A stretch of DNA of 20,659 bases from positions 1 to 20,659 of the IMG/VR virus record IMGVR_UViG_2778261527_000010; one strand, 5' to 3'. Positions 40 to 19,594 of this stretch are shown one piece after another. The notes beneath the pieces are model-generated. The model was given only the letters and a program-made list of their open reading frames with translations. It was not told the origin of the DNA and made no database searches. Position 1 is the first letter of the stretch, and every line of letters starts with the position of its first letter. The stretch comes from a virus (taxonomy: Duplodnaviria > Heunggongvirae > Uroviricota > Caudoviricetes). Made by a program: the position numbers and the translations under genes.

Positions 40-402
40 GGGGCTGATTCTGGATTCGACGGGATTTGCGAAACCCAAGGTGCATGCCGAGGGGCGGTTG
101 GCCTCGTAAAAAGCCGCAAAAAATAGTCGCAAACGACGAAAACTACGCTTTAGCAGCTTAATAACCTGCTTAGAGCCCTCTCTCCCTAGCCTCCGCTCTT
201 AGGACGGGGATCAAGAGAGGTCAAACCCAAAAGAGATCGCGTGGAAGCCCTGCCTGGGGTTGAAGCGTTAAAACTTAATCAGGCTAGTTTGTTAGTGGCG
301 TGTCCGTCCGCAGCTGGCAAGCGAATGTAAAGACTGACTAAGCATGTAGTACCGAGGATGTAGGAATTTCGGACGCGGGTTCAACTCCCGCCAGCTCCAC
401 CA
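40..402 (+). ncRNA. ssrA: tmRNA (SsrA), 363 nt
   Basis: Sequence ggggctgattctggattcgacggg...ccagctccacca matches E. coli tmRNA as I recall it; tag reading frame gcaaacgacgaaaactacgctttagcagcttaa (ANDENYALAA*) present; 3' CCA end at 400-402. Confidence 0.95.
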
Positions 403-403
403 A
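358..403 (+). repeat. attL core: 46-bp direct repeat covering the 3' end of ssrA
   Basis: atgtaggaatttcggacgcgggttcaactcccgccagctccaccaa repeated at 16279-16324 with one mismatch (g378 vs a16299). Confidence 0.85.
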
Positions 404-510: not shown

Positions 511-1284
511 TTACAACTTAAAGAGTTTCGCTTGCTCTGGATTAACAGCTTCGACGTAGTTTTTGACCCCTATTCTGTGCGGCTCATAATTGCTTGAATA
601 GAAATCAATCAGGAAGTCACTCATTTTCTGAGATGTGACTTTCATAACTCCCTTACTCAAAGTTAAATTAAACACGCTAATCTTTGACGATGGTGCCTGA
701 GTTTTACTCATGTTGGCTTGATAACCAGATTTACGCATTGCCACTAGTGCTTCGTCGTAAGCCGCTTGTAATTGGGCCAAATCGTTTGACGAGATGATCA
801 CATCATCCATAAACACACTTAGCTTGAGATCATGATGTTTGTTCAATCGGCGTAGTAAGCTACCAAAATAACTTTTATCTAAGCAGAGGGTTGCAAGTAT
901 TGGAGATTGAACAAAACCAAAAGGGAGGACATGCTTATGTGGACTATGGGACAAGTTTCTTACAGTTGAAAATGTTGAGATTTCCCGCGCTTGAGAATAG
1001 GTGAAGTAGCTCTTTAGATCACGGGTGATACGACTACGGCTCGTTGACTGAAAAAATTGTTTAATATCAACAACGGCAAAAAAATCACTTTTTAAGTGTA
1101 ATCTGGCAGCTTTAAGATGCCCACCAGTTCTTAGATGGTAAAAATAGAGTGGCGGAATCCACTTGTTTCTGACAGCCTGAAGTATCTTCCCTCCGACTTT
1201 ACGTGCCTCAACGCTTGGGACATAAACCCAAACCCCGGGCTTAATCTCAAATTTATCTTCCCACCTTTGAACTTCTATTGTCAT
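511..1284 (-). CDS. compact reverse transcriptase (257 aa), palm/finger domains only
   Basis: RT motifs in canonical order: motif A FFAVVDIKQFF, motif B' LPFGFVQSPILATL, motif C SVFMDDVII (F-x-D-D), K-T-containing domain 6; no thumb or effector extension; AT-richer than phage core. Confidence 0.8.
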   Translation of the reverse strand: MTIEVQRWEDKFEIKPGVWVYVPSVEARKVGGKILQAVRNKWIPPLYFYHLRTGGHLKAARLHLKSDFFAVVDIKQFFQSTSRSRITRDLKSYFTYSQAREISTFSTVRNLSHSPHKHVLPFGFVQSPILATLCLDKSYFGSLLRRLNKHHDLKLSVFMDDVIISSNDLAQLQAAYDEALVAMRKSGYQANMSKTQAPSSKISVFNLTLSKGVMKVTSQKMSDFLIDFYSSNYEPHRIGVKNYVEAVNPEQAKLFKL

Positions 1285-1996: not shown

Positions 1997-3097
1997 TCAT
2001 TCCATTTCGAGATCATCAACCTTCACTTCAAGCTCAAGACTGGTCGTAAAACCGTTATCCGGGCTGACGGTATGTGTCAGGGTGGTAATGGTCCATTCCG
2101 CATCATCTATCGGCTGTTTAAAGCCACTGACTTTCACTGGCATTTCCGTGTAGAGATCTGCCCGCCCTTCCGCCAGTTGTAGCGAGAATGCCGCAACACC
2201 GCGTTGCAGACGTTCCCACTGCATTTTCGCCGCTCGTTCGGCGTTGCTCCGGTTGGCATAAGTGCGATTAAGTACCAGCACGTTTTCATCCGTACCCACC
2301 AGGTAATCGCCCTGCTTCGCTTCCGGCTCTTTCTTCTGCTTCTTAGTCCTGCGCTTACGCTTCACCATGGTGCTTTCTTTCTTCGCGGGTTCGCGGGTAT
2401 GCAACCAGCTGGCAATTACGCCCGTATAGGCTCCGCGATCTGCCAGGGTAAAGCGGTGACTGTCGCCGTCCTTACGCGTGATAGTGATCACCGGCAGTGG
2501 TTTACCGCTGGCGCTTTTGCCCTGTCCCTGCCGGATGAATAACAGATTGCCATTTTTCACCGACGCAATAGCACCGTACTGGCGCGCCAGCCGCATCAAA
2601 AAACTACCGTCACTCTCATTAGTCTGGTCTATATGCTCCACGGGCTTATCCGACAGGTCTTTACCCAGTGCCATCTTCAGCTTGTGACGTACGGCTATTT
2701 CCTTCACCACTTCCCCGACAGTGGTCTTGTGCCACGATTTTTCGCGGCGGGTATTCAGCGTTTCCCGAAAATCAGCACTTCGCGCCCGGATAGTCAGGCG
2801 GTCCGGTGCGCCAGTGTGTTCAATCTCGTCCACCGTGAATGCCCCTTTCGGGAAAAGCGGCTGCCCCTTCCACCCCAGCGCCAGCGTAATGACCGCACCA
2901 CGGCGCGGCAGCACTATTTTTCCGTCGGCGTCGTCCAGCTCCAGATCAAGCTGGTCTGCTTCAAAGCCCCGATTGTCCGTCAGCGTCAGACTCATCAGGC
3001 GGTTATCCAGCACAGTGGTGATATCCTTCCCCTCAATACTGATGCTGAATGCGGGAGTTTTGTTTCCTTTGTTAAGCAGTTCAGAGCTGAAATTCAC
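1997..3097 (-). CDS. D: P2 gpD-like tail protein (late control gene D)
   Basis: 366-aa translation matches gpD along its length (LTLTDNRGFEADQLDLEL, TIRARSADFRETLNTRRE, VKVSGFK, NGFTTSLELEV); ATGA overlap with the upstream U gene. Confidence 0.9.
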   Translation of the reverse strand: MNFSSELLNKGNKTPAFSISIEGKDITTVLDNRLMSLTLTDNRGFEADQLDLELDDADGKIVLPRRGAVITLALGWKGQPLFPKGAFTVDEIEHTGAPDRLTIRARSADFRETLNTRREKSWHKTTVGEVVKEIAVRHKLKMALGKDLSDKPVEHIDQTNESDGSFLMRLARQYGAIASVKNGNLLFIRQGQGKSASGKPLPVITITRKDGDSHRFTLADRGAYTGVIASWLHTREPAKKESTMVKRKRRTKKQKKEPEAKQGDYLVGTDENVLVLNRTYANRSNAERAAKMQWERLQRGVAAFSLQLAEGRADLYTEMPVKVSGFKQPIDDAEWTITTLTHTVSPDNGFTTSLELEVKVDDLEME

Positions 3098-3579
3098 GAC
3101 AGCAGCCCTCCCACCGTTTTACTGATATCGCTTAAGGCAGACGTTGTCGTATCCTGCAAATTATTCAGCTGCGCACTGAGATCACCGAACATATCGGACA
3201 GGGATTCATCCACCCGTTTGAGCGACAGGGTGAACTCAATCCGGCGCGGCATACCATCGCGGAAAAACTCCGTTTTAGTCTGATTCAGTCCCTCAATCAC
3301 ATACATGCCGTAAATCGTGCCGCTGCCTTCAATCAGGGGCCATGCTTTTCCCTGTTCTGCCATCTGCTCCAGAGCCAGCAACGACAGCCTGCCGCCCGTT
3401 ATCTCCGGCATAAGAACACCAGAAAGCGTCAGCATGTCGTTGTCTGGTCCCAGAAACTGCGTGGACGGACGTCGATTGACCCGGCTGTTTGCCGCATGTC
3501 GCCAGCTGCGTTGATACTGCAGTTCCTGATACGGCACAGTGCGCAGCATAAACACGTACAATCCCAGCACCATCATCAT
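3094..3579 (-). CDS. U: P2 gpU-like tail protein
   Basis: 161 aa, MMMVLGLYVFMLRTVPYQELQYQRSWRHA... matches gpU; overlapping start/stop with T fragment and D. Confidence 0.85.
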   Translation of the reverse strand: MMMVLGLYVFMLRTVPYQELQYQRSWRHAANSRVNRRPSTQFLGPDNDMLTLSGVLMPEITGGRLSLLALEQMAEQGKAWPLIEGSGTIYGMYVIEGLNQTKTEFFRDGMPRRIEFTLSLKRVDESLSDMFGDLSAQLNNLQDTTTSALSDISKTVGGLLS

Positions 3580-3995
3580 GCTTCGTATCCCCCCTGATCG
3601 CTGTAGTTACTCCTGGCTTTTGCCTTCAGCCTGCGTTCACGTTCATCAAGCTGGCGGGCCACCTCCCGCGCAATATCCTGCGCACTTTGTCCTGGCTGCG
3701 TCTGAATGATGATCTGCATCGGTGCCTCAATCCGTTGAACGGGCGGCACAGTGGCTGCACGACTCACCATCGCTTCGCCGCCTTTCGCGGGAAGTGCCAA
3801 AGAATGCAACGGTGGAAGCTCTGCAGGCGCGGCAGCAACGCCCATCATTCCGGCAACAACGGCAGCCAGTGCAGCTGTATTTCTCCGGCTGGTCACATTT
3901 GCCGGGCCGTTAACAATTTCCGGCCCGTTTTCACCGACGATGCCAAACTGCCCGCGCGGGATATAGCCGCCGCTGTCATACATCCCCGCAAAGCC
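3576..3995 (-). pseudogene. T: 3' fragment (~135 codons) of tail tape-measure gene (gpT-like); 5' part deleted
   Basis: C-terminal tape-measure-like sequence (GYGFAGMYDSGGYIPRGQFGIVGENGPE...) ending in-frame before U; reading frame runs into unrelated portal-gene sequence at ~3984-4003. Confidence 0.7.
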
Positions 3996-4003
3996 ATATC
4001 CCC

Positions 4004-4399
4004 ATGACCGATGCTGCGCAGAACCAGGAGGATGTGAACAACCTCCGCAATGCGATGAAAAGCGCCAAAGGTCCTGGTAACTTCCGTAACCTGTTTATGT
4101 ACTCGCCTAACGGTAAAAAGGACGGGCTTCAGATTATCCCGTTGTCAGAAGTGGCGGCGAAGGATGAGTTCCTGAATATCAAGAACGTGAGCCGGGACGA
4201 CATGATGGCGGCGCATCGTGTGCCGCCACAAATGATGGGGATAATGCCTAATAATGTCGGGGGGTTTGGGGATATCGAAAAGGCAAGCACAGTATTTGTA
4301 CGAAATGAGCTACTGCCTCTACAAAAAATGTTTCTAGAAATAAATAATTGGTTAAACGATAGAATTATAAATTTTTCAACCTACGAACTAAAAATTTAA
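4004..4399 (+). pseudogene. Q: 3' fragment of portal gene (gpQ-like); 5' part deleted
   Basis: Translation ...FRNLFMYSPNGKKDGLQIIPLSEVAAKDEFLNIKNVSRDDMMAAHRVPPQMMGIMPNNVGGFGDIEKA... resembles P2-family portal C-terminus; opposite strand to tail genes as in P2; last ~25 codons are AT-rich. Confidence 0.6.
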
Positions 4400-4439: not shown

Positions 4440-6098
4440 TCATCTTGAAAGTATCACCCGTTCAAACAATGGCATTAATTGAGAATAAACATTATCATAA
4501 TGTTCATCATTTAAAAGATGATATTTATTTTCAAGTTTGATGCTATTAAAACCATCCATGAAACTCTCATAACCAACAGTTCCAATAATAATCTGATTTG
4601 TAAGGGAAAACCCATCCAAGCATAGTTTTATAAGCTTATGCGTATGCTCTGGATCCAAATCTTGTTGCTTTGGAGAGTCTATTACTATAGGCATATTCTC
4701 AACTGAAGAGTTGCTTTTCATAACACTAAGCAGCGCGTAGTGAAATGCAAATATACCTCGAGGACCTCGACTACCAGTCTTACCCTTAGTAATATTATTA
4801 TAACTACTAAGGCCACCTACCTTTGTATTTTCGACACCAAGCTCTTTAAGAGCTTTAGCGAAATACTCTTTGAAACAGTCATTTATTTTAACAGTTCTTT
4901 TCTTATCATTGTATACTTCTAATTCTTCTTGTAATTCTGTCAACTCGCCTTCTTTTCGACCAATCTCAACGAATAACTCATCTAACTGTGAAATAAAAGT
5001 AGATTCAATTTCATGGTATGCGGCAGATTTAATAACATCATGAAGCGTTATTTCCGATTGAGTTTCTAAAATCAGCGCCTGCAACGCCTCTGAAGCAGCC
5101 CTTGACTCTTCTAGCTTTTGATTCAATTTAGGAATATTTTCCTCAATCTTGCTTTTCTCATCTGCAAGAACAGCAATGTTTTTGAGCATTTCATCTCTAT
5201 GGTTTATATAATTATATTCATTTACTGAATAAGCAACATTATCATCTCGAAAATTCGAAATCTCAAATTCATTATCAATAATCGCAGTTATCTCTTTGAG
5301 TTCACTCTCAAGGAAATTCTTCCTAGAATATAACCTCAAAAGATTCAATCTATATTCTGTCTGAACTAAATTTAAATTAGAATATTCATTTAATATACGT
5401 TCCAACTTTGATTTATAAAAATCCAAATCAACATCAAATAAAACCACGCCAAAAGATTCATCAATCTTACTTTTGCTTCTTTTTAGAACCTTAACAAAAC
5501 CATCTAACTCTGAAATTTTAACTTTAATTTCTTTGATTTTCCCTTGAACTGTATAATATTCCTTTGGCTTAATTCCAGAGTGATAGTAAAGAATGTTTTT
5601 TTGCCATTCTGAGTACATACTCATGTTTTCGAAAGAATTTATCACCGCTTTCCATCCTTCATCCTGATCAATAAAGAATGGGGCAAACAAACAAGCAGGG
5701 TTTGCCTGAGTCGTAGCACCCGTATATTTATTATGTAATTCCAGTTTAAAACCAAATATATTTGAAACACGAGATGCTAATGACGAAATCGTGTTATACA
5801 CGACTAGATCATCATTCTTCAAATCAAAGACACCAATAATCTTTTTATAACGCAAAAAAATAAAATCATTTTCCCCGTTATTAATTTCCACCAGTGTAAC
5901 TATATCATCTGATTTCCAAGCATCATCAAGCCTTAAATCTCCACCTAATGTGTAATAAAGACTTTTAATCAGGCTTGATTTACCAACATCATTTGTACCA
6001 TATATGAAGTTAACCCCTTCTGAAAACTCATAAGAAAAAGCTTTTCTGTCTCTTAATGAGAGTATTTTTATATTTTTAAATTTAACGTTATTCTTCAT
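4440..6098 (-). CDS. SMC-like ABC ATPase, LmuB-like (DUF3732-type) component of a Lamassu-like defence system
   Basis: N-terminal Walker A GTNDVGKSS, long coiled-coil middle (E/K/L-rich), C-terminal IVIDSPKQQ resembling the D-Q-P Walker-B variant of LmuB; GAGGA RBS before ATG 6098; 11-nt overlap with upstream gene; AT-rich. Confidence 0.6.
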   Translation of the reverse strand: MKNNVKFKNIKILSLRDRKAFSYEFSEGVNFIYGTNDVGKSSLIKSLYYTLGGDLRLDDAWKSDDIVTLVEINNGENDFIFLRYKKIIGVFDLKNDDLVVYNTISSLASRVSNIFGFKLELHNKYTGATTQANPACLFAPFFIDQDEGWKAVINSFENMSMYSEWQKNILYYHSGIKPKEYYTVQGKIKEIKVKISELDGFVKVLKRSKSKIDESFGVVLFDVDLDFYKSKLERILNEYSNLNLVQTEYRLNLLRLYSRKNFLESELKEITAIIDNEFEISNFRDDNVAYSVNEYNYINHRDEMLKNIAVLADEKSKIEENIPKLNQKLEESRAASEALQALILETQSEITLHDVIKSAAYHEIESTFISQLDELFVEIGRKEGELTELQEELEVYNDKKRTVKINDCFKEYFAKALKELGVENTKVGGLSSYNNITKGKTGSRGPRGIFAFHYALLSVMKSNSSVENMPIVIDSPKQQDLDPEHTHKLIKLCLDGFSLTNQIIIGTVGYESFMDGFNSIKLENKYHLLNDEHYDNVYSQLMPLFERVILSR

Positions 6099-7167
6099 AA
6101 GAAACATCCTCAAAAGTCAACTTTATAATTGCATATATAGCAATCATAAATTTCTCTTCTTGATTTAATAAAGAGAAATCCCCGTCCCCCGCTGCAATTG
6201 TTTTTTCGAGTGTAAAGAAGAGGTCTCGAACAGGTATCTCACGATAATGCTCTATACTCTTTAGAGCCGATTGAAATTCCAGAAAATAAAGATAGTATAT
6301 TGAATTGACATTGAGCACTTTTATTGATATGCGTGTAAAAACTGATTGTAATTTAATCCCCTCATAAGGATCTGAGAAAGTACCAAGCAACATACAAACC
6401 TGTTCCCATTTTGGCGTTATTTTTATGCTTGCAATGAGTCCAGATAATAAATCAGTTACAAATTCTGAAGATATACCTTTCTTTAGTACTAAATCTTCAA
6501 AAGTTTTGATATCACTAGAAGCAACACTAACCTTCTCATTACACTTATTGATTAATAATTTAGTGAATGCTGTTGAATTAATACCATGATCATCCCCAAA
6601 GTAAGAATTCAAAAAAACTGCAACTTTCCCGTATAAATGTGAGTTAGGATCTAACAAACTAAGATCAGATGTTTTAAATTTTATTTTATCAAGAGGAACT
6701 TCTTTTTTAGTATTTAGCTGCTCTTGAACCTTACTAATTATAATTTCCTTATGCTCATTATTAAGATCACTACCTTTTTCGTTATTATCATTTAAGAAAT
6801 CGAATCCAGCATTCGATAACAGAACCATATAAATTTCGTGACCAACGAATTGATAGAAATGGTCATATAGTTTTGCAACAAATGATTTAGGTTTAGCTTT
6901 TGTTGCGTTCACTATTGCTGCGAGTGTCCATTTACCATCTTTTTTTGTTTTAACTTGGATAAACTCAGCACTAGTCGGAGAAACAGATGAATTCAATACA
7001 AGAATATCGTCATGATATTCAAATAGAAATAAATATTTCTCCTTTTCTTTTTGTTTCTCAAGTAAATAATTTATCCCCCAAGAGGCTTGATATGAAAAGC
7101 CTCTCAACGCGTTTTCACCGCCCCGTTCGGCTTGATTTACTGTAATTAACGCATCTGATAACGCCAC
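6088..7167 (-). CDS. LmuA-like effector with N-terminal Cap4/DUF4297-type PD-(D/E)xK-like nuclease region
   Basis: N-terminus GFSYQASWGINYLLE...EYHDDILVLN...FIQVKTKK resembles the DUF4297 D...QxK core; GTG start, in-frame stop two codons upstream; AT-rich; sits at the P2 old/tin position. Confidence 0.5.
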   Translation of the reverse strand: MALSDALITVNQAERGGENALRGFSYQASWGINYLLEKQKEKEKYLFLFEYHDDILVLNSSVSPTSAEFIQVKTKKDGKWTLAAIVNATKAKPKSFVAKLYDHFYQFVGHEIYMVLLSNAGFDFLNDNNEKGSDLNNEHKEIIISKVQEQLNTKKEVPLDKIKFKTSDLSLLDPNSHLYGKVAVFLNSYFGDDHGINSTAFTKLLINKCNEKVSVASSDIKTFEDLVLKKGISSEFVTDLLSGLIASIKITPKWEQVCMLLGTFSDPYEGIKLQSVFTRISIKVLNVNSIYYLYFLEFQSALKSIEHYREIPVRDLFFTLEKTIAAGDGDFSLLNQEEKFMIAIYAIIKLTFEDVSYEE

Positions 7168-13154: not shown

Positions 13155-13210
13155 AGTGCAGTATCTCCCGATTAAGGTTTGGTTTACGTCGTTTTATCTC
13201 GTTTTACTTG

Positions 13211-13259
13211 ATTCAATATTTGATACATCGAGATACTACGATCCAATATTTGATACGTC
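13211..13259. repeat. two direct repeats (caatatttgatac, 13214-13226 and 13244-13256; 17/19 identity when extended) in the immunity switch region; candidate operator sites
   Basis: Identical 13-mers 30 bp apart; one lies between -35 and -10 of the lytic promoter, the other just downstream of its predicted start. Confidence 0.45.
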
Positions 13260-13273: not shown

Positions 13274-13906
13274 ATGATACAGGTAAAGGTTGGAGAGAAT
13301 ACAGGGGGAAGAGAGGCTATCCATAGACTAATGGCAGCCTATGATTTCAAGTCCAGACAGCAACTTTGCGATCACTTAGGCGCATCAAAAAGCACCATGG
13401 CAAACAGATACTTAAGAGATAGTTTTCCTGCAGAGTGGGTGATTCAGTGCGCCTTGGAAACAGGAGTTTCTTTATTGTGGCTAACCACCGGACAGGGGGA
13501 GCCAGGTCCAAACATTGAACCTAAAAAAAATATCAATTCCGTGAACTCCAGCAAGGTTGTACCTCTTTCTGAACTAGTATCTCCTGAAATTGACAAGGCG
13601 ACTCTCAACGGTGGTTTATTGGTCGATGCTGGAAAAGCAATCATTGATAGCAGCATACTCCCCTCAGACTCAAGCAACCTACTGCTGGTGACTACTTCTG
13701 GTGATTCTTATTTAATAGATCGCAACCAAACACCACCAGTAAATGGTATGTGGTTAGTCGATATCGACGGGATAAAAAGCATCGTTAAATTGACTCGACT
13801 CCCGGGAAACAAATTAGTAGTGCATCAGGATGATTCATCGTTTGAGTGCGGTCTGGATGACATTGAGGTAGTAGGCCGCGCACTGAAAATCATTAAGAGC
13901 CTTTGA
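13274..13906 (+). CDS. cI: CI-like immunity repressor (210 aa)
   Basis: N-terminal HTH (SRQQLCDHLGASKSTMANRYLR); divergent from apl; immediately upstream of int as in 186. Confidence 0.75.
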   Translation: MIQVKVGENTGGREAIHRLMAAYDFKSRQQLCDHLGASKSTMANRYLRDSFPAEWVIQCALETGVSLLWLTTGQGEPGPNIEPKKNINSVNSSKVVPLSELVSPEIDKATLNGGLLVDAGKAIIDSSILPSDSSNLLLVTTSGDSYLIDRNQTPPVNGMWLVDIDGIKSIVKLTRLPGNKLVVHQDDSSFECGLDDIEVVGRALKIIKSL

Positions 13907-13907
13907 T

Positions 13908-14924
13908 ATGACCATCAGAAAACAGCCGAACGGAAAATGGTTGTGTGAGTGCTATCCCAATGGACGCAATGGCAAGCGCGTGCGTAAGCAATTTGCCACG
14001 AAAGGCGAAGCCATTGCGTTTGAAAGCTTCACAATGGAAGAAGTGAATAAAAAACCGTGGTTGGGTGAAAAGGATGATCGGCGACGCCTATCAGAATTAA
14101 TTGAGCTTTGGTATTCCCTGTATGGTCAGACACTCGCAGACCCCAAGCGCCTCATGGCGAAACTTAGAATTATCTGTAATGGCCTAGGCGACCCCATCGC
14201 CTCAGAACTGACAGCCGGAGACTTTACGAAATACCGCGAAGCACGGTTAAAAGGTGAAATACGAAATGAAGATGGCACGCTTATGTCGCCCGTTAAGCCC
14301 CGCACGGTAAACCTTGAACAACGCAATCTATCATCGGTGTTCGGTACATTAAAAAAACTAGGACACTGGTCAGCACCAAACCCGCTGGCAGGACTTCCGA
14401 CCTTCAAAATTGCCGAAGGTGAGCTGGCTTTTCTTTCCACGGACGAAATCAAGCGCCTGTTGGCGGCATGTGCTGAATCTCAAAGCCCTAGCTTACTAAT
14501 GATTGCAAAAATATGCCTAGCTACTGGCGCACGGTGGAGTGAAGCAGAAAATTTGCAGGGCCATCAGTTATCCAAATACCGCATCACTTATACCAAGACG
14601 AAGGGCAAGAAAAACCGTACCGTGCCAATATCTCAGGATCTGTACAACGAACTTCCTAAAAATCGAGGGAAGTTATTCTCACCATGCAGAAAAGCCTTTG
14701 AGCGTGCAGTAAAGCGGGCCGATATTGAGCTTCCTGAGGGTCAATGCACCCATGTATTACGTCATACATTCGCCAGCCATTTTATGATGAACGGAGGAAA
14801 CATACTTGTGCTTAAAGAAATTTTAGGCCATGCCGATATAAAAATGACCATGATTTATGCGCACTTTTCTCCAGATCATCTGGAGGATGCGGTAACTAAA
14901 AATCCTTTAAACTATATAGAGTGA
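13908..14924 (+). CDS. int: tyrosine integrase, P2/186 family (338 aa)
   Basis: Catalytic-region motifs ATGARWSEA, HVLRHTFASHF, LGHADIKMTMIYAHF; adjacent to attR. Confidence 0.9.
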   Translation: MTIRKQPNGKWLCECYPNGRNGKRVRKQFATKGEAIAFESFTMEEVNKKPWLGEKDDRRRLSELIELWYSLYGQTLADPKRLMAKLRIICNGLGDPIASELTAGDFTKYREARLKGEIRNEDGTLMSPVKPRTVNLEQRNLSSVFGTLKKLGHWSAPNPLAGLPTFKIAEGELAFLSTDEIKRLLAACAESQSPSLLMIAKICLATGARWSEAENLQGHQLSKYRITYTKTKGKKNRTVPISQDLYNELPKNRGKLFSPCRKAFERAVKRADIELPEGQCTHVLRHTFASHFMMNGGNILVLKEILGHADIKMTMIYAHFSPDHLEDAVTKNPLNYIE

Positions 14925-14928
14925 AAAC

Positions 14929-16164
14929 ATGGACGAAAAAAAATCCAGTACTCAATTAGAATCAGAAAAGAAAAATGCACTCTGGATTGATCACTTTCTT
15001 GAACGACTATTGAGCCATGAAGAATTAAATCCACCATTCAACATTAAAGGCGATATAGCCAGTGATTTTTCTAATCGATGTAAAATTTATATGACTTTAA
15101 TTGATGAATCAATAAAAGCAGACATGAATGGATGCGGTAGGGAACTTAGAGTTCTAAAAGGACGAGTTGCAAATATTCATAAGTGCATACAAAAAACTCT
15201 AGAGGAGTTTTTGTCTGGAGATATTAAAAAAGCATATGACATTTTCGATGACATTATGTCAAAGGAGGCAACAATAGCCCAACTAAATCGAATTAGTATC
15301 TTGCTAAAAGATTTTTGCAATAAGGAAAAGCCACTTTATCGGGTCAGAAAATCAGAAACGCCTTTGATTGAGCACAACCAAATATTTCATATTCCGTTTT
15401 CAAAAAGACATTTAGTGAATGCTCAAAGATATTCAGTCGCAGGCCAACCCTGCTTATATCTCGGTACATCCTTGTACGTATGTTGGCAAGAGATGGGAAA
15501 GCCAGATTTTGATAAATTATATATATCATCCTTCGTTACAAACGATGTAAATTCAACAATTTTAAATTTTGCTTCTCCTCACCTTTCACTTCCAATTAAA
15601 AAAACTGTTGATGAAAATAAAATATATGATGAAAACAGAACAAAAGCATCATACTTGATATTCTGGCCATTACTAATCGCTTGCAATTATTTAAAACGCG
15701 TAGAAAATTCATCATTCACACCTGAATATATAATCCCAAATTTATTAATGCAGTGGATCGGTCGTCGGGTTAAATCACCAATAGCGGGGATAGCATATTA
15801 CTCTACAAAAATGCCGAATTCTAGGAGCAGTAAATATTCTGTTAATGTTGTATTACCACCTAAAGCAACCTATAAGCAATCTATTCAATATGATTTTTGT
15901 CCAAAACTAGCTTCTTACTTCGAATTTACAGCCCCTATGTCTTGGCAAGTACTTAAAACCTTAGATTATCAAAATCAGTTTGAGATATCGAATGAACAAA
16001 GAATTGCCATCGATTACTTACGAAAAAAAGAAAAATTATCAGGTATAGCGAATTTTGAGGAAGACATCGTGAAGCTATATCCTCTTACAGATTTTCACAA
16101 ACTTGAATTATTGGTTGATCGGTTATTCAAACATCAAAAAATCGAACATACACTGCACACGTAA
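14929..16164 (+). CDS. RES-domain protein with N- and C-terminal extensions (411 aa)
   Basis: RES signature in order: PLYRVRKSE ... NAQRYSVAGQPCLYLGTSLYVCWQEMG (R, E) ... PIAGIAYYSTKMPNS (S); strongly AT-rich versus flanking int; lies between int and attR. Confidence 0.6.
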   Translation: MDEKKSSTQLESEKKNALWIDHFLERLLSHEELNPPFNIKGDIASDFSNRCKIYMTLIDESIKADMNGCGRELRVLKGRVANIHKCIQKTLEEFLSGDIKKAYDIFDDIMSKEATIAQLNRISILLKDFCNKEKPLYRVRKSETPLIEHNQIFHIPFSKRHLVNAQRYSVAGQPCLYLGTSLYVCWQEMGKPDFDKLYISSFVTNDVNSTILNFASPHLSLPIKKTVDENKIYDENRTKASYLIFWPLLIACNYLKRVENSSFTPEYIIPNLLMQWIGRRVKSPIAGIAYYSTKMPNSRSSKYSVNVVLPPKATYKQSIQYDFCPKLASYFEFTAPMSWQVLKTLDYQNQFEISNEQRIAIDYLRKKEKLSGIANFEEDIVKLYPLTDFHKLELLVDRLFKHQKIEHTLHT

Positions 16165-16278: not shown

Positions 16279-16324
16279 ATGTAGGAATTTCGGACGCGAG
16301 TTCAACTCCCGCCAGCTCCACCAA
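16279..16324 (+). repeat. attR core: second copy of the 46-bp ssrA 3'-end repeat (one mismatch)
   Basis: atgtaggaatttcggacgcgagttcaactcccgccagctccaccaa; the mismatch would break a T-arm base pair, consistent with the displaced non-functional copy. Confidence 0.85.
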
Positions 16325-16450: not shown

Positions 16451-16480
16451 AAAAGCCCGCTTATGCGGGCTTTTTGTTTT
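16451..16480 (+). terminator. rho-independent terminator
   Basis: aaaagcccgc-ttat-gcgggc followed by tttttgttttt. Confidence 0.6.
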
Positions 16481-16557
16481 TCCCTTAAGTTCCTAGCCGC
16501 TTATCTATAACTATGGAAAAATGTTAACCCTGACTGTATGTTAACAAAGGGATGTAT

Positions 16558-17765
16558 ATGTCGGTTTTTCATAACTGGCTGCTTGATATCGCAAGCGGGA
16601 ATTACTTTATCTACATCAAACGCCTTTCTGCAAACGACACAGGCGCAACAGGTGGCCATCAGGTCGGACTTTATATCCCCTCAAATATCGTTGAAAAGCT
16701 TTTTCCATCTATCAATCATACTCGCGAACTGAACCCTTCAGTCTTCCTTACTGCGCATGTATCATCCCATGATTGCCCTGATACCCAAGCACGCGCAATT
16801 TATTACAACAACCGTTATTTTGGTAAGACCCGAAACGAAAAAAGAATTACGCGCTGGGGGAGAGGAAGTCCATTACAGAACCCTGAAAATACAGGAGCCC
16901 TCACAATTCTTGCTTTCAGGTTAAACGAACAGAACACTGACTGTTCCGAGGTAGATATATGGGTCTGCGTCAATCCCGATGAAGAGGATATCATCGAGTC
17001 TGCTATTGGCGAAATCATACCTGGAACCCTAATTTCCGGCCCTGCCGGACAAATTTTGGGCGGATTGTCTCTTCAGCAAACTCCAGTAAATCATAAATAT
17101 GTTATTCCTGAAGACTGGAAGAAGCGTTTTCCTTCTGGAAACGAAATTATTCAATATGCTGCTGGCCATTATGCTAAAAACTCCAAGGATCCAGATGAGC
17201 AACTGATTGACCGTCGGCGTGTCGAGTATGATATTTTCTACTCGTCGAGGAATTACATGTTCTTGATATTATTAAGAAAGGATTCGATTCTGTAGATGAG
17301 TTTATTGCATTAGCCAACTCTGTCAGTAATCGACGTAAATCAAGGGCAGGCAAATCACTTGAACTTCACCTAGAGAAGCTTTTTATCGAGCACGGACTAC
17401 GGCATTTCTCCACTCAGGCAGTTACTGAAGGTAATAAAAAACCAGATTTCCTGTTTCCTTCAGCAGAGGCATATCATAACGTTGAATTTCCTGTAGAAAA
17501 CTTACGTATGCTGGCAGTAAAGACCACCTGCAAAGATCGCTGGCGTCAGATACTGAATGAAGCAGATAAAATCCATCAGGTACATTTATTTACACTGCAA
17601 GAAGGTGTTTCTTCAGCACAATACCGAGAAATGAAAGATGCGGGTGTCAGACTCGTTGTACCATCAACTTTACATAAAAAATACCCAGAAGCAGTTAGAG
17701 AAGAATTAATAACGCTCGGAGCATTCATTACTGAGCTGATAGAGCTTTACGCTGAACTATCATAG
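16558..17765 (+). pseudogene. EcoRII-family (CCWGG-type) restriction endonuclease gene, disrupted by a 1-nt frameshift near 17234-17238
   Basis: N-terminus MSVFHNWLL..YIKRLSANDTGATGGHQVGLYIPS matches EcoRII as I recall it; frame 0 stops at 17293-17295 (246 aa); homologous sequence continues in the +2 frame from 17238 (LLVEELHVLDIIKKGF...) to stop at 17763-17765. Confidence 0.8.
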
Positions 17766-17799: not shown

Positions 17800-19233
17800 T
17801 CAAGGCTGCCCAGTCTTACCAGCATCAGCAGAAACAGCTTTGAGGATATAGGGTTCCAGAAGTCTGGCAACAGCTTCAAATACTGGCACCACAACTGAGT
17901 TACCGAACTGCCGATATGACTGAGTATCTGAAACCGGAATACGGAATGGTTTCCCTCCAGGTTTTTCAAATCCCATAAGGCGTGCGCACTCTCGGGGAGT
18001 CAGCCTGCGTGGTCGACGAGCCTGATTACTCTCATTCATAAAGTCAGCCTCTCCCGTTGCCATATCCCAACCACGATCAATAAGAATTTCTGATCCGTCT
18101 TTGTGATATCTGGCAGAAAGTGTGCGTGCAATGCTTTCCTTATTCTCAGGATTGACCAACCCAAAGCCAAAACCATTCCCCTTGGCTGCATGCTTTTTGG
18201 CGTAGTTATAAAGGTACTCCCATAGTTTTGGCGTAAGTATATATTTACTGTCGACTACAGGCTCCAGCAATTCACCAAATGATGGGCGGTGTTCCGGATA
18301 AAAACGACTGATATCACGCAAGGTAAACCCCTTGTGAATATTCAGATCTCGTCTAAATCCGACCAGAACAATACGTTCACGATGCTGAGGCAAAAAATGC
18401 TTCCCATCGATAATCTTTGGATCGTTTTTTCCCATTTCTGCAGCATCGGCAACTTCGTAGCCCAGCTCGTCAAGGGTCTCCATAATGACTTTGAAAGTTT
18501 TACCCTTATCATGGCTCTTCAGATTTTTGACATTTTCCAGCACAAAAATTGCCGGTTTTTTTGCTCGTATAATACGTGCCACGTCAAAAAAAAGTGTTCC
18601 TTGTGCTTCACATTCAAAACCATGCGCACGACCAAGTGAGTTTTTCTTACTAACACCAGCAAGGCTAAATGGCTGGCACGGGAACCCCGCAAGAAGCACA
18701 TCATGATCCGGCACATGCTCATCAATATATGCATAAGCATCCGTTTCCAATACATCGGTTTTATCACTCAGCGTGACTTCCCGAATATCGAGATTGAATT
18801 TATGCACCTGTTCATCGTTAAACCAGTTGGCCTTGTATGTACGCACAGCATCTTTATTCCATTCACTGGTAAAAACACACTGGCCTCCAATGGCCTCAAA
18901 ACCTTTCCGTATCCCTCCAATTCCAGCAAATAAGTCAATGAAGCGGAAAGCATATTCCGGATGGTTTGCAGGTGGTTCTGGTAGCATCTTACGCAGAAGA
19001 GACTCTTCTACTGAAGTCAACGATTTTGGTAAACACTTGCCATTAATCCAGCGGTTAATGGTTTCACGGCTCCACTCATTTTTTCCGACTTTTCTCAGTA
19101 ATTCAGCCACATACTTCTGATCATAGATTTCCAGCACTTTCTCGATAAGCTTTTTATCATTTTCCTGTCGCAGCTTTTCTTCCGCCTCGGCTTCCTTCAG
19201 CAGATGCTGTGCCAACACTTCAAATTCAGACAT
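17800..19233 (-). CDS. DNA (cytosine-5) methyltransferase, M.EcoRII/Dcm-like (477 aa)
   Basis: C5-MTase motifs [36 protein letters not shown]; collinear with M.EcoRII as I recall it; GGAGG RBS 5 nt before ATG 19233 (ORF track start at 19275 is probably too long). Confidence 0.9.
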
Positions 19234-19594
19234 AATTCCTCCAAGGGGTCTAATGGGTGAAACTTTATCACTCATTCAACCCAGAAGGAAATGTTTTATC
19301 TGGATATTTAAACAGTGACTACAACGTAATCTAGCACTGGTGATGCTTTGTTAGGCATAGAGAATCATTCTATATACGACTAATGACAGAAAAACAGCAG
19401 ACAAGTAGTTTGTTCATAAATTAACGCATACTATGTGTCTACGGTTTTCGAGACCGGTCCAATCATCAAACGAAACATAAAATTAGCTCACATTATGAGG
19501 AAAAGTATCTTTTTTGTACTATGTAAATTCAAAGGCTTAGCCTCATTTCTCCGATGGTTTTCTCAACACTACTGGTTGTGAGCCCTTGCAATGA

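Follow-up and report, generated by a model that had tools for sequence, protein, structure and literature searches.

The question raised by this locus is what a long, stand-alone protein bearing the marks of a RES domain does beside the integrase gene of a prophage. The gene lies in a window of 20,659 nucleotides (nt), the whole stretch of DNA that was analyzed, which spans positions 1 to 20,659 of the IMG/VR virus record IMGVR_UViG_2778261527_000010 (Caudoviricetes) and represents the ssrA region of Escherichia coli strain H2 (NZ_CP028733.1), from which it differed by one base in the compared stretch. A first-pass annotation of the sequence had suggested that the gene could encode an abortive-infection or superinfection-exclusion effector. 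This remained the best-supported interpretation of the locus, as judged from genomic context and from a characterized analogue, and we consider it reasonably probable that the product is a prophage-borne RES enzyme that would defend its host by depletion of nicotinamide adenine dinucleotide (NAD+), resulting in abortive infection or superinfection exclusion.

The RES-like gene is an open reading frame (ORF) of 411 amino acids (aa) on the plus strand at positions 14929 to 16164, stop codon included, with an ATG start. Immediately 5' of it are the cI repressor and integrase genes (13274 to 14924, plus strand; identified from their ORFs and the names given by the Prokaryotic Genome Annotation Pipeline [PGAP]). 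The stop codon of int (13908 to 14924) is separated from the ATG by 5 nt, while 115 nt lie between the stop codon of the RES-like gene and the attR core at 16279 to 16324, and the ORF list for the window contained no further ORF of plausible size in the int-attR interval. The gene had a GC content of 33.3%, far below that of int (46.2%); the whole window had a GC content of 44.3%. Both the placement of the ORF, as established from the ORF list and the 46-nt repeat that forms the att cores, and its AT-rich composition were as first described.

The initial description had treated such an effector as belonging to a type not recognized as named. A named analogue does, in fact, exist. The aRES proteins (Osterman et al., bioRxiv 10.64898/2026.01.28.702374, 28 January 2026) are stand-alone RES-domain proteins that are encoded in defense islands without an antitoxin. 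In that study, aRES of E. coli UC5, K. pneumoniae and E. chengduensis shielded E. coli from diverse phages, with growth arrest, and infection was accompanied by depletion of NAD+ and accumulation of ADP-ribose-1''-phosphate (ADPR-1P), the reaction being the conversion of NAD+ to nicotinamide (Nam) and ADPR-1P. Alanine substitutions were made at R182, R184, R215, Y225, E236 and S334, and mutations of the predicted active site abolished defense. The aRES proteins were counted in ∼4% of genomes and were defined by matches to the RES Pfam family and to PF18870 (HEPN/RES N-terminal domain 1), with an hhsearch probability of >80% and a length of 300 to 600 aa (Osterman et al.). The RES accession is printed as PF00808 in that paper, and the validated aRES proteins matched PF08808 in our own scan. 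Furthermore, a homolog of the window protein in phage Cartapus is already annotated as "putative RES protein, NAD+ binding domain."

Assignment of the window protein to the RES group needed evidence from fold and from profile-profile comparison, because the Pfam RES (PF08808) hidden Markov model (HMM) scored below its gathering cut-off (13.6 bits versus 23.2 bits; E = 0.068), with a match that covered only profile positions 2 to 50 of 157. Use of this HMM had been proposed as a check on the first-pass annotation, and the outcome was divided: the protein itself fell below the threshold, but 25 of 63 distant relatives (diverse members with 24 to 51% identity to the window protein) matched the HMM at an E value of ≤0.01, the best at 8.1e-7. 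An AlphaFold2 model of the protein (predicted local distance difference test score [pLDDT], 88.4; predicted template modeling score, 0.89) had a three-dimensional fold of the RES/ADP-ribosyltransferase-like type. Alignment of a family profile with an aRES profile by hhalign gave a probability of 91.9% and an E value of 6.9e-7 over aa 94 to 318; the aRES profile was built from 25 sequences and served as a proxy for the hhsearch against Pfam used by the aRES authors. This profile-profile comparison was the only one to link the protein to aRES, since a BLASTP comparison with aRES of UC5 was not significant. A Foldseek search of the BFVD viral structures returned nothing at an E value of ≤0.001, and a PHROGs search returned only families of unknown function, among them phrog_7835 (6e-142).

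The same alignment placed the six aRES residues R182, R184, R215, Y225, E236 and S334 opposite R138, R140, R167, Y177, E188 and S292 of the window protein, with identical residues at every position. They fall in three motifs, namely, LYRVR (R138 and R140), QRYSVAGQPCLYLGTSLYVCWQEM (R167, Y177 and E188) and GIAYYSTK (S292), and are encoded on the plus strand at 15340 to 15342 (R138), 15346 to 15348 (R140), 15427 to 15429 (R167), 15457 to 15459 (Y177), 15490 to 15492 (E188) and 15802 to 15804 (S292). All six residues were invariant across 35 close homologs. Among the 63 distant members, R167, Y177 and E188 were kept in all, R140 in 62, R138 in 61 and S292 in 55, with threonine replacing the serine in 7 others. 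The ordered Arg/Glu/Ser signature noticed in the first-pass annotation is thus real and, on sequence grounds, far beyond chance. Since the six aRES-equivalent residues were kept across such diverse relatives, the machinery needed for aRES function is intact and under strong selection in the window protein, which is very likely a functional RES-fold enzyme. A catalytically dead RES-like scaffold with a nonenzymatic role would be consistent with the subthreshold Pfam score but not with the near invariance of the catalytic and NAD+-binding equivalents in the 63 distant members; we regard this alternative as highly improbable, and a dead enzyme was rejected on the basis of the invariant active site.

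The catalytic domain is only the central part of the protein. In the model, an all-helical N-terminal domain of five helices (aa 1 to 134; 14929 to 15330, plus strand), which had no Pfam match, precedes the RES-fold catalytic domain (aa ∼135 to 345; 15331 to 15963, plus strand), which contains a variable insert at aa ∼201 to 240. A C-terminal helical extension (aa 346 to 411; 15964 to 16161, plus strand) follows, with helices at aa 355 to 399 and the motif LYPLTDFxKLE. The first-pass annotation had noted extra regions at both ends and had called for prediction of their structure; both proved to be helical domains in this model. Conservation of at least 90% among the 63 distant members extended into these flanks, at G97 in the N-terminal domain and at Y384, F389 and E393 in the LYPLTDFxKLE motif. 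The three-part build is a hallmark of the family and not a local accident.

Rates of change differed between these regions. In a comparison of 35 homologs that occupy this prophage slot, mean pairwise identity was 0.27 to 0.34 in the N terminus (residues 1 to 95), 0.49 in the linker helices (residues 96 to 134), 0.81 in the first part of the RES core, which carries the R, R, R, Y and E residues (residues 135 to 200), 0.31 in the variable insert (residues 201 to 240), 0.65 in the second part of the core, which carries the S residue (residues 241 to 312), and 0.31 in the first C-terminal helix region (C1; residues 346 to 378). A conserved core combined with a divergent N terminus, insert and C1 region resembles the signature of an arms race and would favor a defensive function; a conserved core in a fast-changing shell would fit a shell that senses phage proteins or is targeted by them.

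These flanking domains also separate the protein from aRES. In common with aRES, the gene stands alone without an operonic partner, its product of 411 aa falls within the range of 300 to 600 aa, and it occurs in Enterobacterales in defense-type neighborhoods; by analogy, the same chemistry (NAD+ to Nam and ADPR-1P) and growth arrest might be expected. The N terminus of aRES, however, is a CxxC...CxxC zinc ribbon followed by PF18870, whereas that of the window protein is helical and free of Cys pairs, with no counterpart of the invariant aRES residues C8, C11, C31 and C34. The C-terminal extensions are likewise unrelated, and hhalign comparisons with aRES gave probabilities of only 0.5 to 1.9% for the N-terminal parts and 0.3% for the C-terminal parts. 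Homologs of aRES are ∼450 to 500 aa long, have a precomputed PF08808 assignment and bear the NCBI name "RES family NAD+ phosphorylase," whereas members of the window family have no Pfam assignment and are named "hypothetical protein" throughout. The aRES catalogue (Table S2 of the preprint) contains no Bacillus subtilis or Cronobacter genome, and both carry the window family, as yopC of SPbeta and as a widespread Cronobacter prophage gene, respectively. The habitat also differs, the window family residing in a prophage int-att slot. Membership in aRES sensu stricto was rejected because PF18870 is absent. Since this domain is missing and the flanks are unrelated, comparison of the sequences makes the window protein a sister architecture to aRES, with the same core and stand-alone logic and different flanking domains.

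The RES core also resembles the toxins of Xre-RES toxin-antitoxin modules, and one alternative is that the gene is a remnant of such a module which has lost its antitoxin and is inert or is tolerated because it is not expressed. The Xre-RES, MbcTA, NatRT and ParST toxins (PF08808) have solved chains of 144 to 250 aa and are neutralized by an adjacent antitoxin, unlike the window protein, with its 411 aa and helical domains fused on both sides of the core. The absence of an Xre-type partner noted in the first-pass annotation extended beyond this locus: no Xre/DUF2384 or MbcA/ParS-type antitoxin gene was detected in the window or in 87 related loci, and the sole nearby helix-turn-helix gene in the window is that of the prophage repressor cI, two genes upstream. 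In all 8 genome places examined for two homologs (43 to 47% identity; Salmonella and Cronobacter), the order cI-int-gene was found, followed downstream by unrelated host or island genes. The same integrase lay upstream in 79 of 80 IMG/VR loci and was directly adjacent in 77, while the 80th locus begins at the RES-like gene itself. No recurrent partner gene was present in the 8 genome places and 80 IMG/VR loci, and what followed downstream was either the end of the prophage or host DNA that varied between loci. In two of the IMG/VR prophages (L029 and L030), a gene for a 352-aa protein with N-terminal transmembrane helices was inserted between int and the RES-like gene (2813 to 3871, plus strand), indicating that the slot can hold two cargo genes. 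The survey of neighborhoods (all 8 genome places and 79 of the 80 IMG/VR loci) therefore did not bear out the reservation, raised at the outset, that homologs might always be paired with an antitoxin that was lost here. A possible regulator or partner was seen in a single context, that of the distant homolog yopC in SPbeta (L013, 3279 to 4942), which is preceded by yopB, a 75-aa helix-turn-helix gene that could be a regulator. YopC itself has 442 aa, with 32% identity over aa 79 to 344, and nothing on its function was found in the literature. The remnant hypothesis was largely refuted by the 87 partnerless loci, and we assign it a very small probability.

The size of the family is considerable: clustering at 50% identity gave 2448 representatives (E ≤ 1e-3). 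In the related IMG/VR loci (L018 to L097), the integrases were 90 to 96% identical whereas the RES-like cargo proteins were 41 to 83% identical; the cI proteins of these prophages represented several immunity types, with 52 to 100% identity. The gap in identity between integrase and cargo points either to exchange in a mosaic fashion or to faster divergence of the cargo than of int, and it is a further sign of an arms race. In other E. coli strains, the same slot was occupied by GapS1, an HNH endonuclease or other hypothetical proteins, with int and att flanks of ∼90% DNA identity. GapS1 (GAPS1), for which anti-phage activity has been described experimentally, was reported in a bioRxiv preprint on Gamma-Mobile-Trio elements, which abound in defensive tools. 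The exact window allele was detected in 1 of 5426 complete E. coli genomes, and divergent relatives were detected at the DNA level in 41 more E. coli genomes, including those of LF82 and S88. In ssrA-integrating 186-like prophages, the int-att slot is usually filled by the RES-like family, and this slot is a site of high turnover between conserved phage features that holds known defense genes in related elements. In these respects, and in being small and AT-rich, the locus resembles the cargo loci of P2/186-like prophages, which turn over rapidly between conserved phage features and hold single-gene defense candidates. The hotspots described by Rousset (2022) and Vassallo (2022) are the gpA-portal (cos-adjacent; tin/old) and Z/fun sites, and the accessible text of these two papers contained no mention of the int-attR slot of ssrA-integrating 186-like phages or of RES.

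The association with phages could point to a gene that serves the phage itself, as a lysogeny-maintenance or addiction toxin, as a means of host metabolic takeover at induction or by destruction of NAD+-derived immune signals. The family is the most frequent occupant of this slot within the phage genome, beside int, and is present in intact, inducible phages (Cartapus, RE2010, SopEPhi and SPbeta). Homologs of the same protein family were found in Cartapus of Escherichia (CARTA_33; 44% identity), in RE2010 and SopEPhi of Salmonella (44% and, for the left-end ORF of SopEPhi, 40%), all in the same int-adjacent position, and in SPbeta (YopC; 32%), where it is annotated as "RES domain-containing protein" and differs in belonging to another phage type and in having the small helix-turn-helix gene upstream. 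Against a phage-serving function, the slot is interchangeable with GapS1, the gene is kept intact in a prophage without structural genes, and an NAD+-destroying enzyme would damage the phage's own replication. Furthermore, distant homologs reside outside phages, in or beside type I restriction-modification operons and near a Gabija-like pair, GmrSD and AbiGi. On balance, a role in the service of the phage appears unlikely.

These distant contexts were seen in an inspection of seven members. One (P0160; L011, 4001 to 5131) separates hsdR from hsdM in a type I restriction-modification operon and is beside GmrSD; the hsdR-hsdM interval is the known position of PrrC-like anticodon nucleases. Another (P0145) follows hsdR and a YgjP-like gene. 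A third (P0150; L016, 3522 to 5357) encodes 611 aa and is fused to an LlaMI/MvaI-type restriction endonuclease domain, with a Gabija-like OLD-ATPase/UvrD helicase pair adjoining, and a fourth (P0128) is near AbiGi. The neighbors of the remaining three (P0197, P0149 and P0192) were uninformative, and no small gene recurred beside the seven.

Expression in the lysogen was considered from the arrangement of signals around the gene. A promoter scan from int to the RES-like gene detected no convincing promoter, and promoter-like sites were fewer than expected from shuffled sequence. The first terminator candidate 3' of the gene is an intrinsic-terminator-like hairpin (16451 to 16474, plus strand; a 10-bp stem followed by a T run) just past attR, which is probably the displaced terminator of ssrA. 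As no convincing promoter of its own was found, int abuts the gene and the first terminator lies beyond attR, the simplest interpretation is that the lysogenic promoter probably drives a common transcript of cI, int and the RES-like gene.

Combination of these observations suggested a mechanism for NAD+-depleting defense. The protein would be a self-contained, single-chain enzyme whose catalytic core, of the MbcT/NatT/aRES type, is enclosed at both ends by helical domains peculiar to the family, and its gene, as the cargo of a cI-int-[cargo]-attR slot in an ssrA-integrated 186-like prophage, would probably share a transcript with cI and int in the lysogen. In uninfected cells the enzyme would be inactive; because no antitoxin exists, silencing is presumed to be exerted by its own fast-evolving flanking domains. 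Infection by a heterologous phage would then activate the enzyme, which would phosphorolyse NAD+ to nicotinamide and ADPR-1''-phosphate. The infected cell would arrest and phage replication would be blocked, with abortive infection or superinfection exclusion as the outcome, which was demonstrated for aRES, and the beneficiaries would be the lysogen population and the resident prophage. At the chemical step, the protein could instead act as a RES-fold ADP-ribosyltransferase of the ParT type, the target of which would be a particular protein or nucleic acid of the host or of a phage, an activity which may still serve defense; this is a minor possibility.

Several results weigh against a defensive NAD+ phosphorylase of the aRES kind. 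In addition to the subthreshold Pfam RES score, scans of the protein with PADLOC 2.0 and NCBIfam gave no match, and hmmsearch of the PDB sequences with two family profile HMMs recovered no RES toxin, returning only helical bundles and designed proteins of similar composition. PF18870 was not matched by the window protein at an E value of ≤10 or by any of the 63 relatives at an E value of ≤0.01, in tests for which aRES of UC5 (3.6e-4) and K. pneumoniae (2.7e-10) served as positive controls; because this domain and the zinc ribbon are absent, the trigger and regulation of aRES are not transferable to the window protein. Three of the seven distant contexts lacked defense neighbors. In transcriptome tables for LF82 as a lysogen of Cartapus, cI was transcribed and int was transcribed more weakly, and the table ends at int, without a row for the RES homolog. 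No functional study of the Cartapus, RE2010, SopEPhi or YopC homologs or of other family members was found in the literature.

The element that carries the gene is a prophage remnant. The attR core (plus strand) is a duplicated 3' end of ssrA, and it forms a 46-nt direct repeat with the attL core at 358 to 403 (plus strand), the 3' end of the intact ssrA; the two copies are identical at 45 of 46 positions (98%), with one mismatch. The transfer-messenger RNA gene (ssrA) extends over 40 to 402, and the repeat corresponds to its last 46 nt (358 to 403). The repeats mark the two ends, attL and attR, of a 186/P2-like prophage remnant of 15.9 kb, in which PGAP identified ogr, D, U, gpA, dam, fil, cII, apl, cI and int. 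At 3576 to 4399, the tape-measure gene, truncated to its C-terminal part, is joined to a portal gene fragment, and the prophage is a deletion remnant that has lost every head gene and most of the tail genes. The immunity/int region and three accessory loci (reverse transcriptase, Lamassu and RES-like) are intact. In the divergent apl-like/cI region, 20-nt direct repeats (GATYCAATATTTGATACRTC) are located at 13210 to 13229 and 13240 to 13259, 30 nt apart, and probably serve as operators for the repressor in the pR/pL switch.

The 3' end of the RES-like gene differs between the available sequences. An A6 homopolymer at 16136 to 16141 (plus strand), in the final 30 nt of the gene, is A7 in NZ_CP028733.1, and this is the sole difference between the two gene copies. 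The A6 version in the window encodes 411 aa with the C terminus KIEHTLHT, and the A7 version encodes 421 aa with a C terminus ending in ...NRTYTAHVSGDTLAAEH (TLAAEH). Three homologs (P0043, P0050 and P0029; ∼50% identity) likewise terminate in -LAAEH. As several homologs share this ending, the longer A7 frame reads into conserved att-proximal sequence. The discrepancy could reflect a sequencing error or real slippage.

The other accessory loci of the remnant also carry defense-type genes. A complete, AT-rich (∼31% GC) two-gene Lamassu system is located at 4440 to 7167 on the minus strand, where gpA/dinI and the portal fragment flank it; this is the classical tin/old (gpA-portal) hotspot of P2. 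It comprises LmuB, an SMC-type ATPase of 552 aa (PADLOC, 8e-254), and LmuA, a protein of 359 aa with a Cap4/DUF4297 nuclease domain (4e-143); the PGAP names for the pair are "hypothetical protein" and "dsDNA nuclease domain-containing protein." Between attL/ssrA and ogr, a gene at 511 to 1284 (minus strand) encodes a reverse-transcriptase-domain protein of 257 aa, for which the best PADLOC matches were retron reverse transcriptase models (RT_VI, 5.7e-18); the protein is short for a retron reverse transcriptase, and a small ORF (58 aa in PGAP) lies upstream of the gene at about 1253 to 1426. With RES-like, Lamassu and reverse transcriptase genes in place, all three variable slots of this virion-gene-less prophage hold cargo of the defense type.

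Just outside attR, an EcoRII-like restriction endonuclease gene is frameshifted (ORFs at 16552 to 17295 and 17508 to 17765), and an intact gene for a Dcm-type cytosine methyltransferase (17800 to 19275, minus strand) is convergent with it; the pair looks like a restriction-modification system in decay, on the way to leaving an orphan methylase. Strain H2 carries, farther downstream, a gene for a GIY-YIG protein, another integrase island and DarTG, and in view of these islands the ssrA locus is a tandem array of defense-laden islands.

Stand-alone RES defense was already known from aRES, as was a homolog in the same slot that a phage record labels as a putative RES protein. The new elements are the architecture, the unrecognized size of the family, its absence from the defense catalogues tested and its role as default cargo of a slot that lies outside the P2 hotspot literature, as represented by the accessible text of the two studies cited above. 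It is about as likely as not that the window protein is the founding example of a further clade of stand-alone RES immune enzymes, the second to be recognized and built independently of aRES, comprising ∼2,400 clusters from Proteobacteria to SPbeta, all of them "hypothetical," in which an aRES-type core is combined with a different and rapidly evolving sensory and autoinhibitory shell. Such a clade would be the default defense cargo of the int-att slot in ssrA-integrating 186-like phages, would respond to phage triggers unlike those of aRES and might differ in its sensitivity to aRad1, NARP2 or an ADPR-1P phosphatase.

If this proves correct, NAD+ phosphorolysis by stand-alone RES enzymes would be considerably more widespread in phage defense than the ∼4% of genomes attributed to aRES, in a family that escapes Pfam, NCBIfam, PADLOC 2.0 and the aRES detection rule. 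The two groups would form a natural pair, with the same catalytic core and unrelated regulatory domains, for studies of antitoxin-free silencing and sensing. The int-attR slot of 186-like prophages would join the known defense hotspots of the P2 family, and ORFs of SopEPhi, RE2010, Cartapus (the LF82 prophage) and SPbeta (yopC) that have long lacked an assigned role would be given a function.

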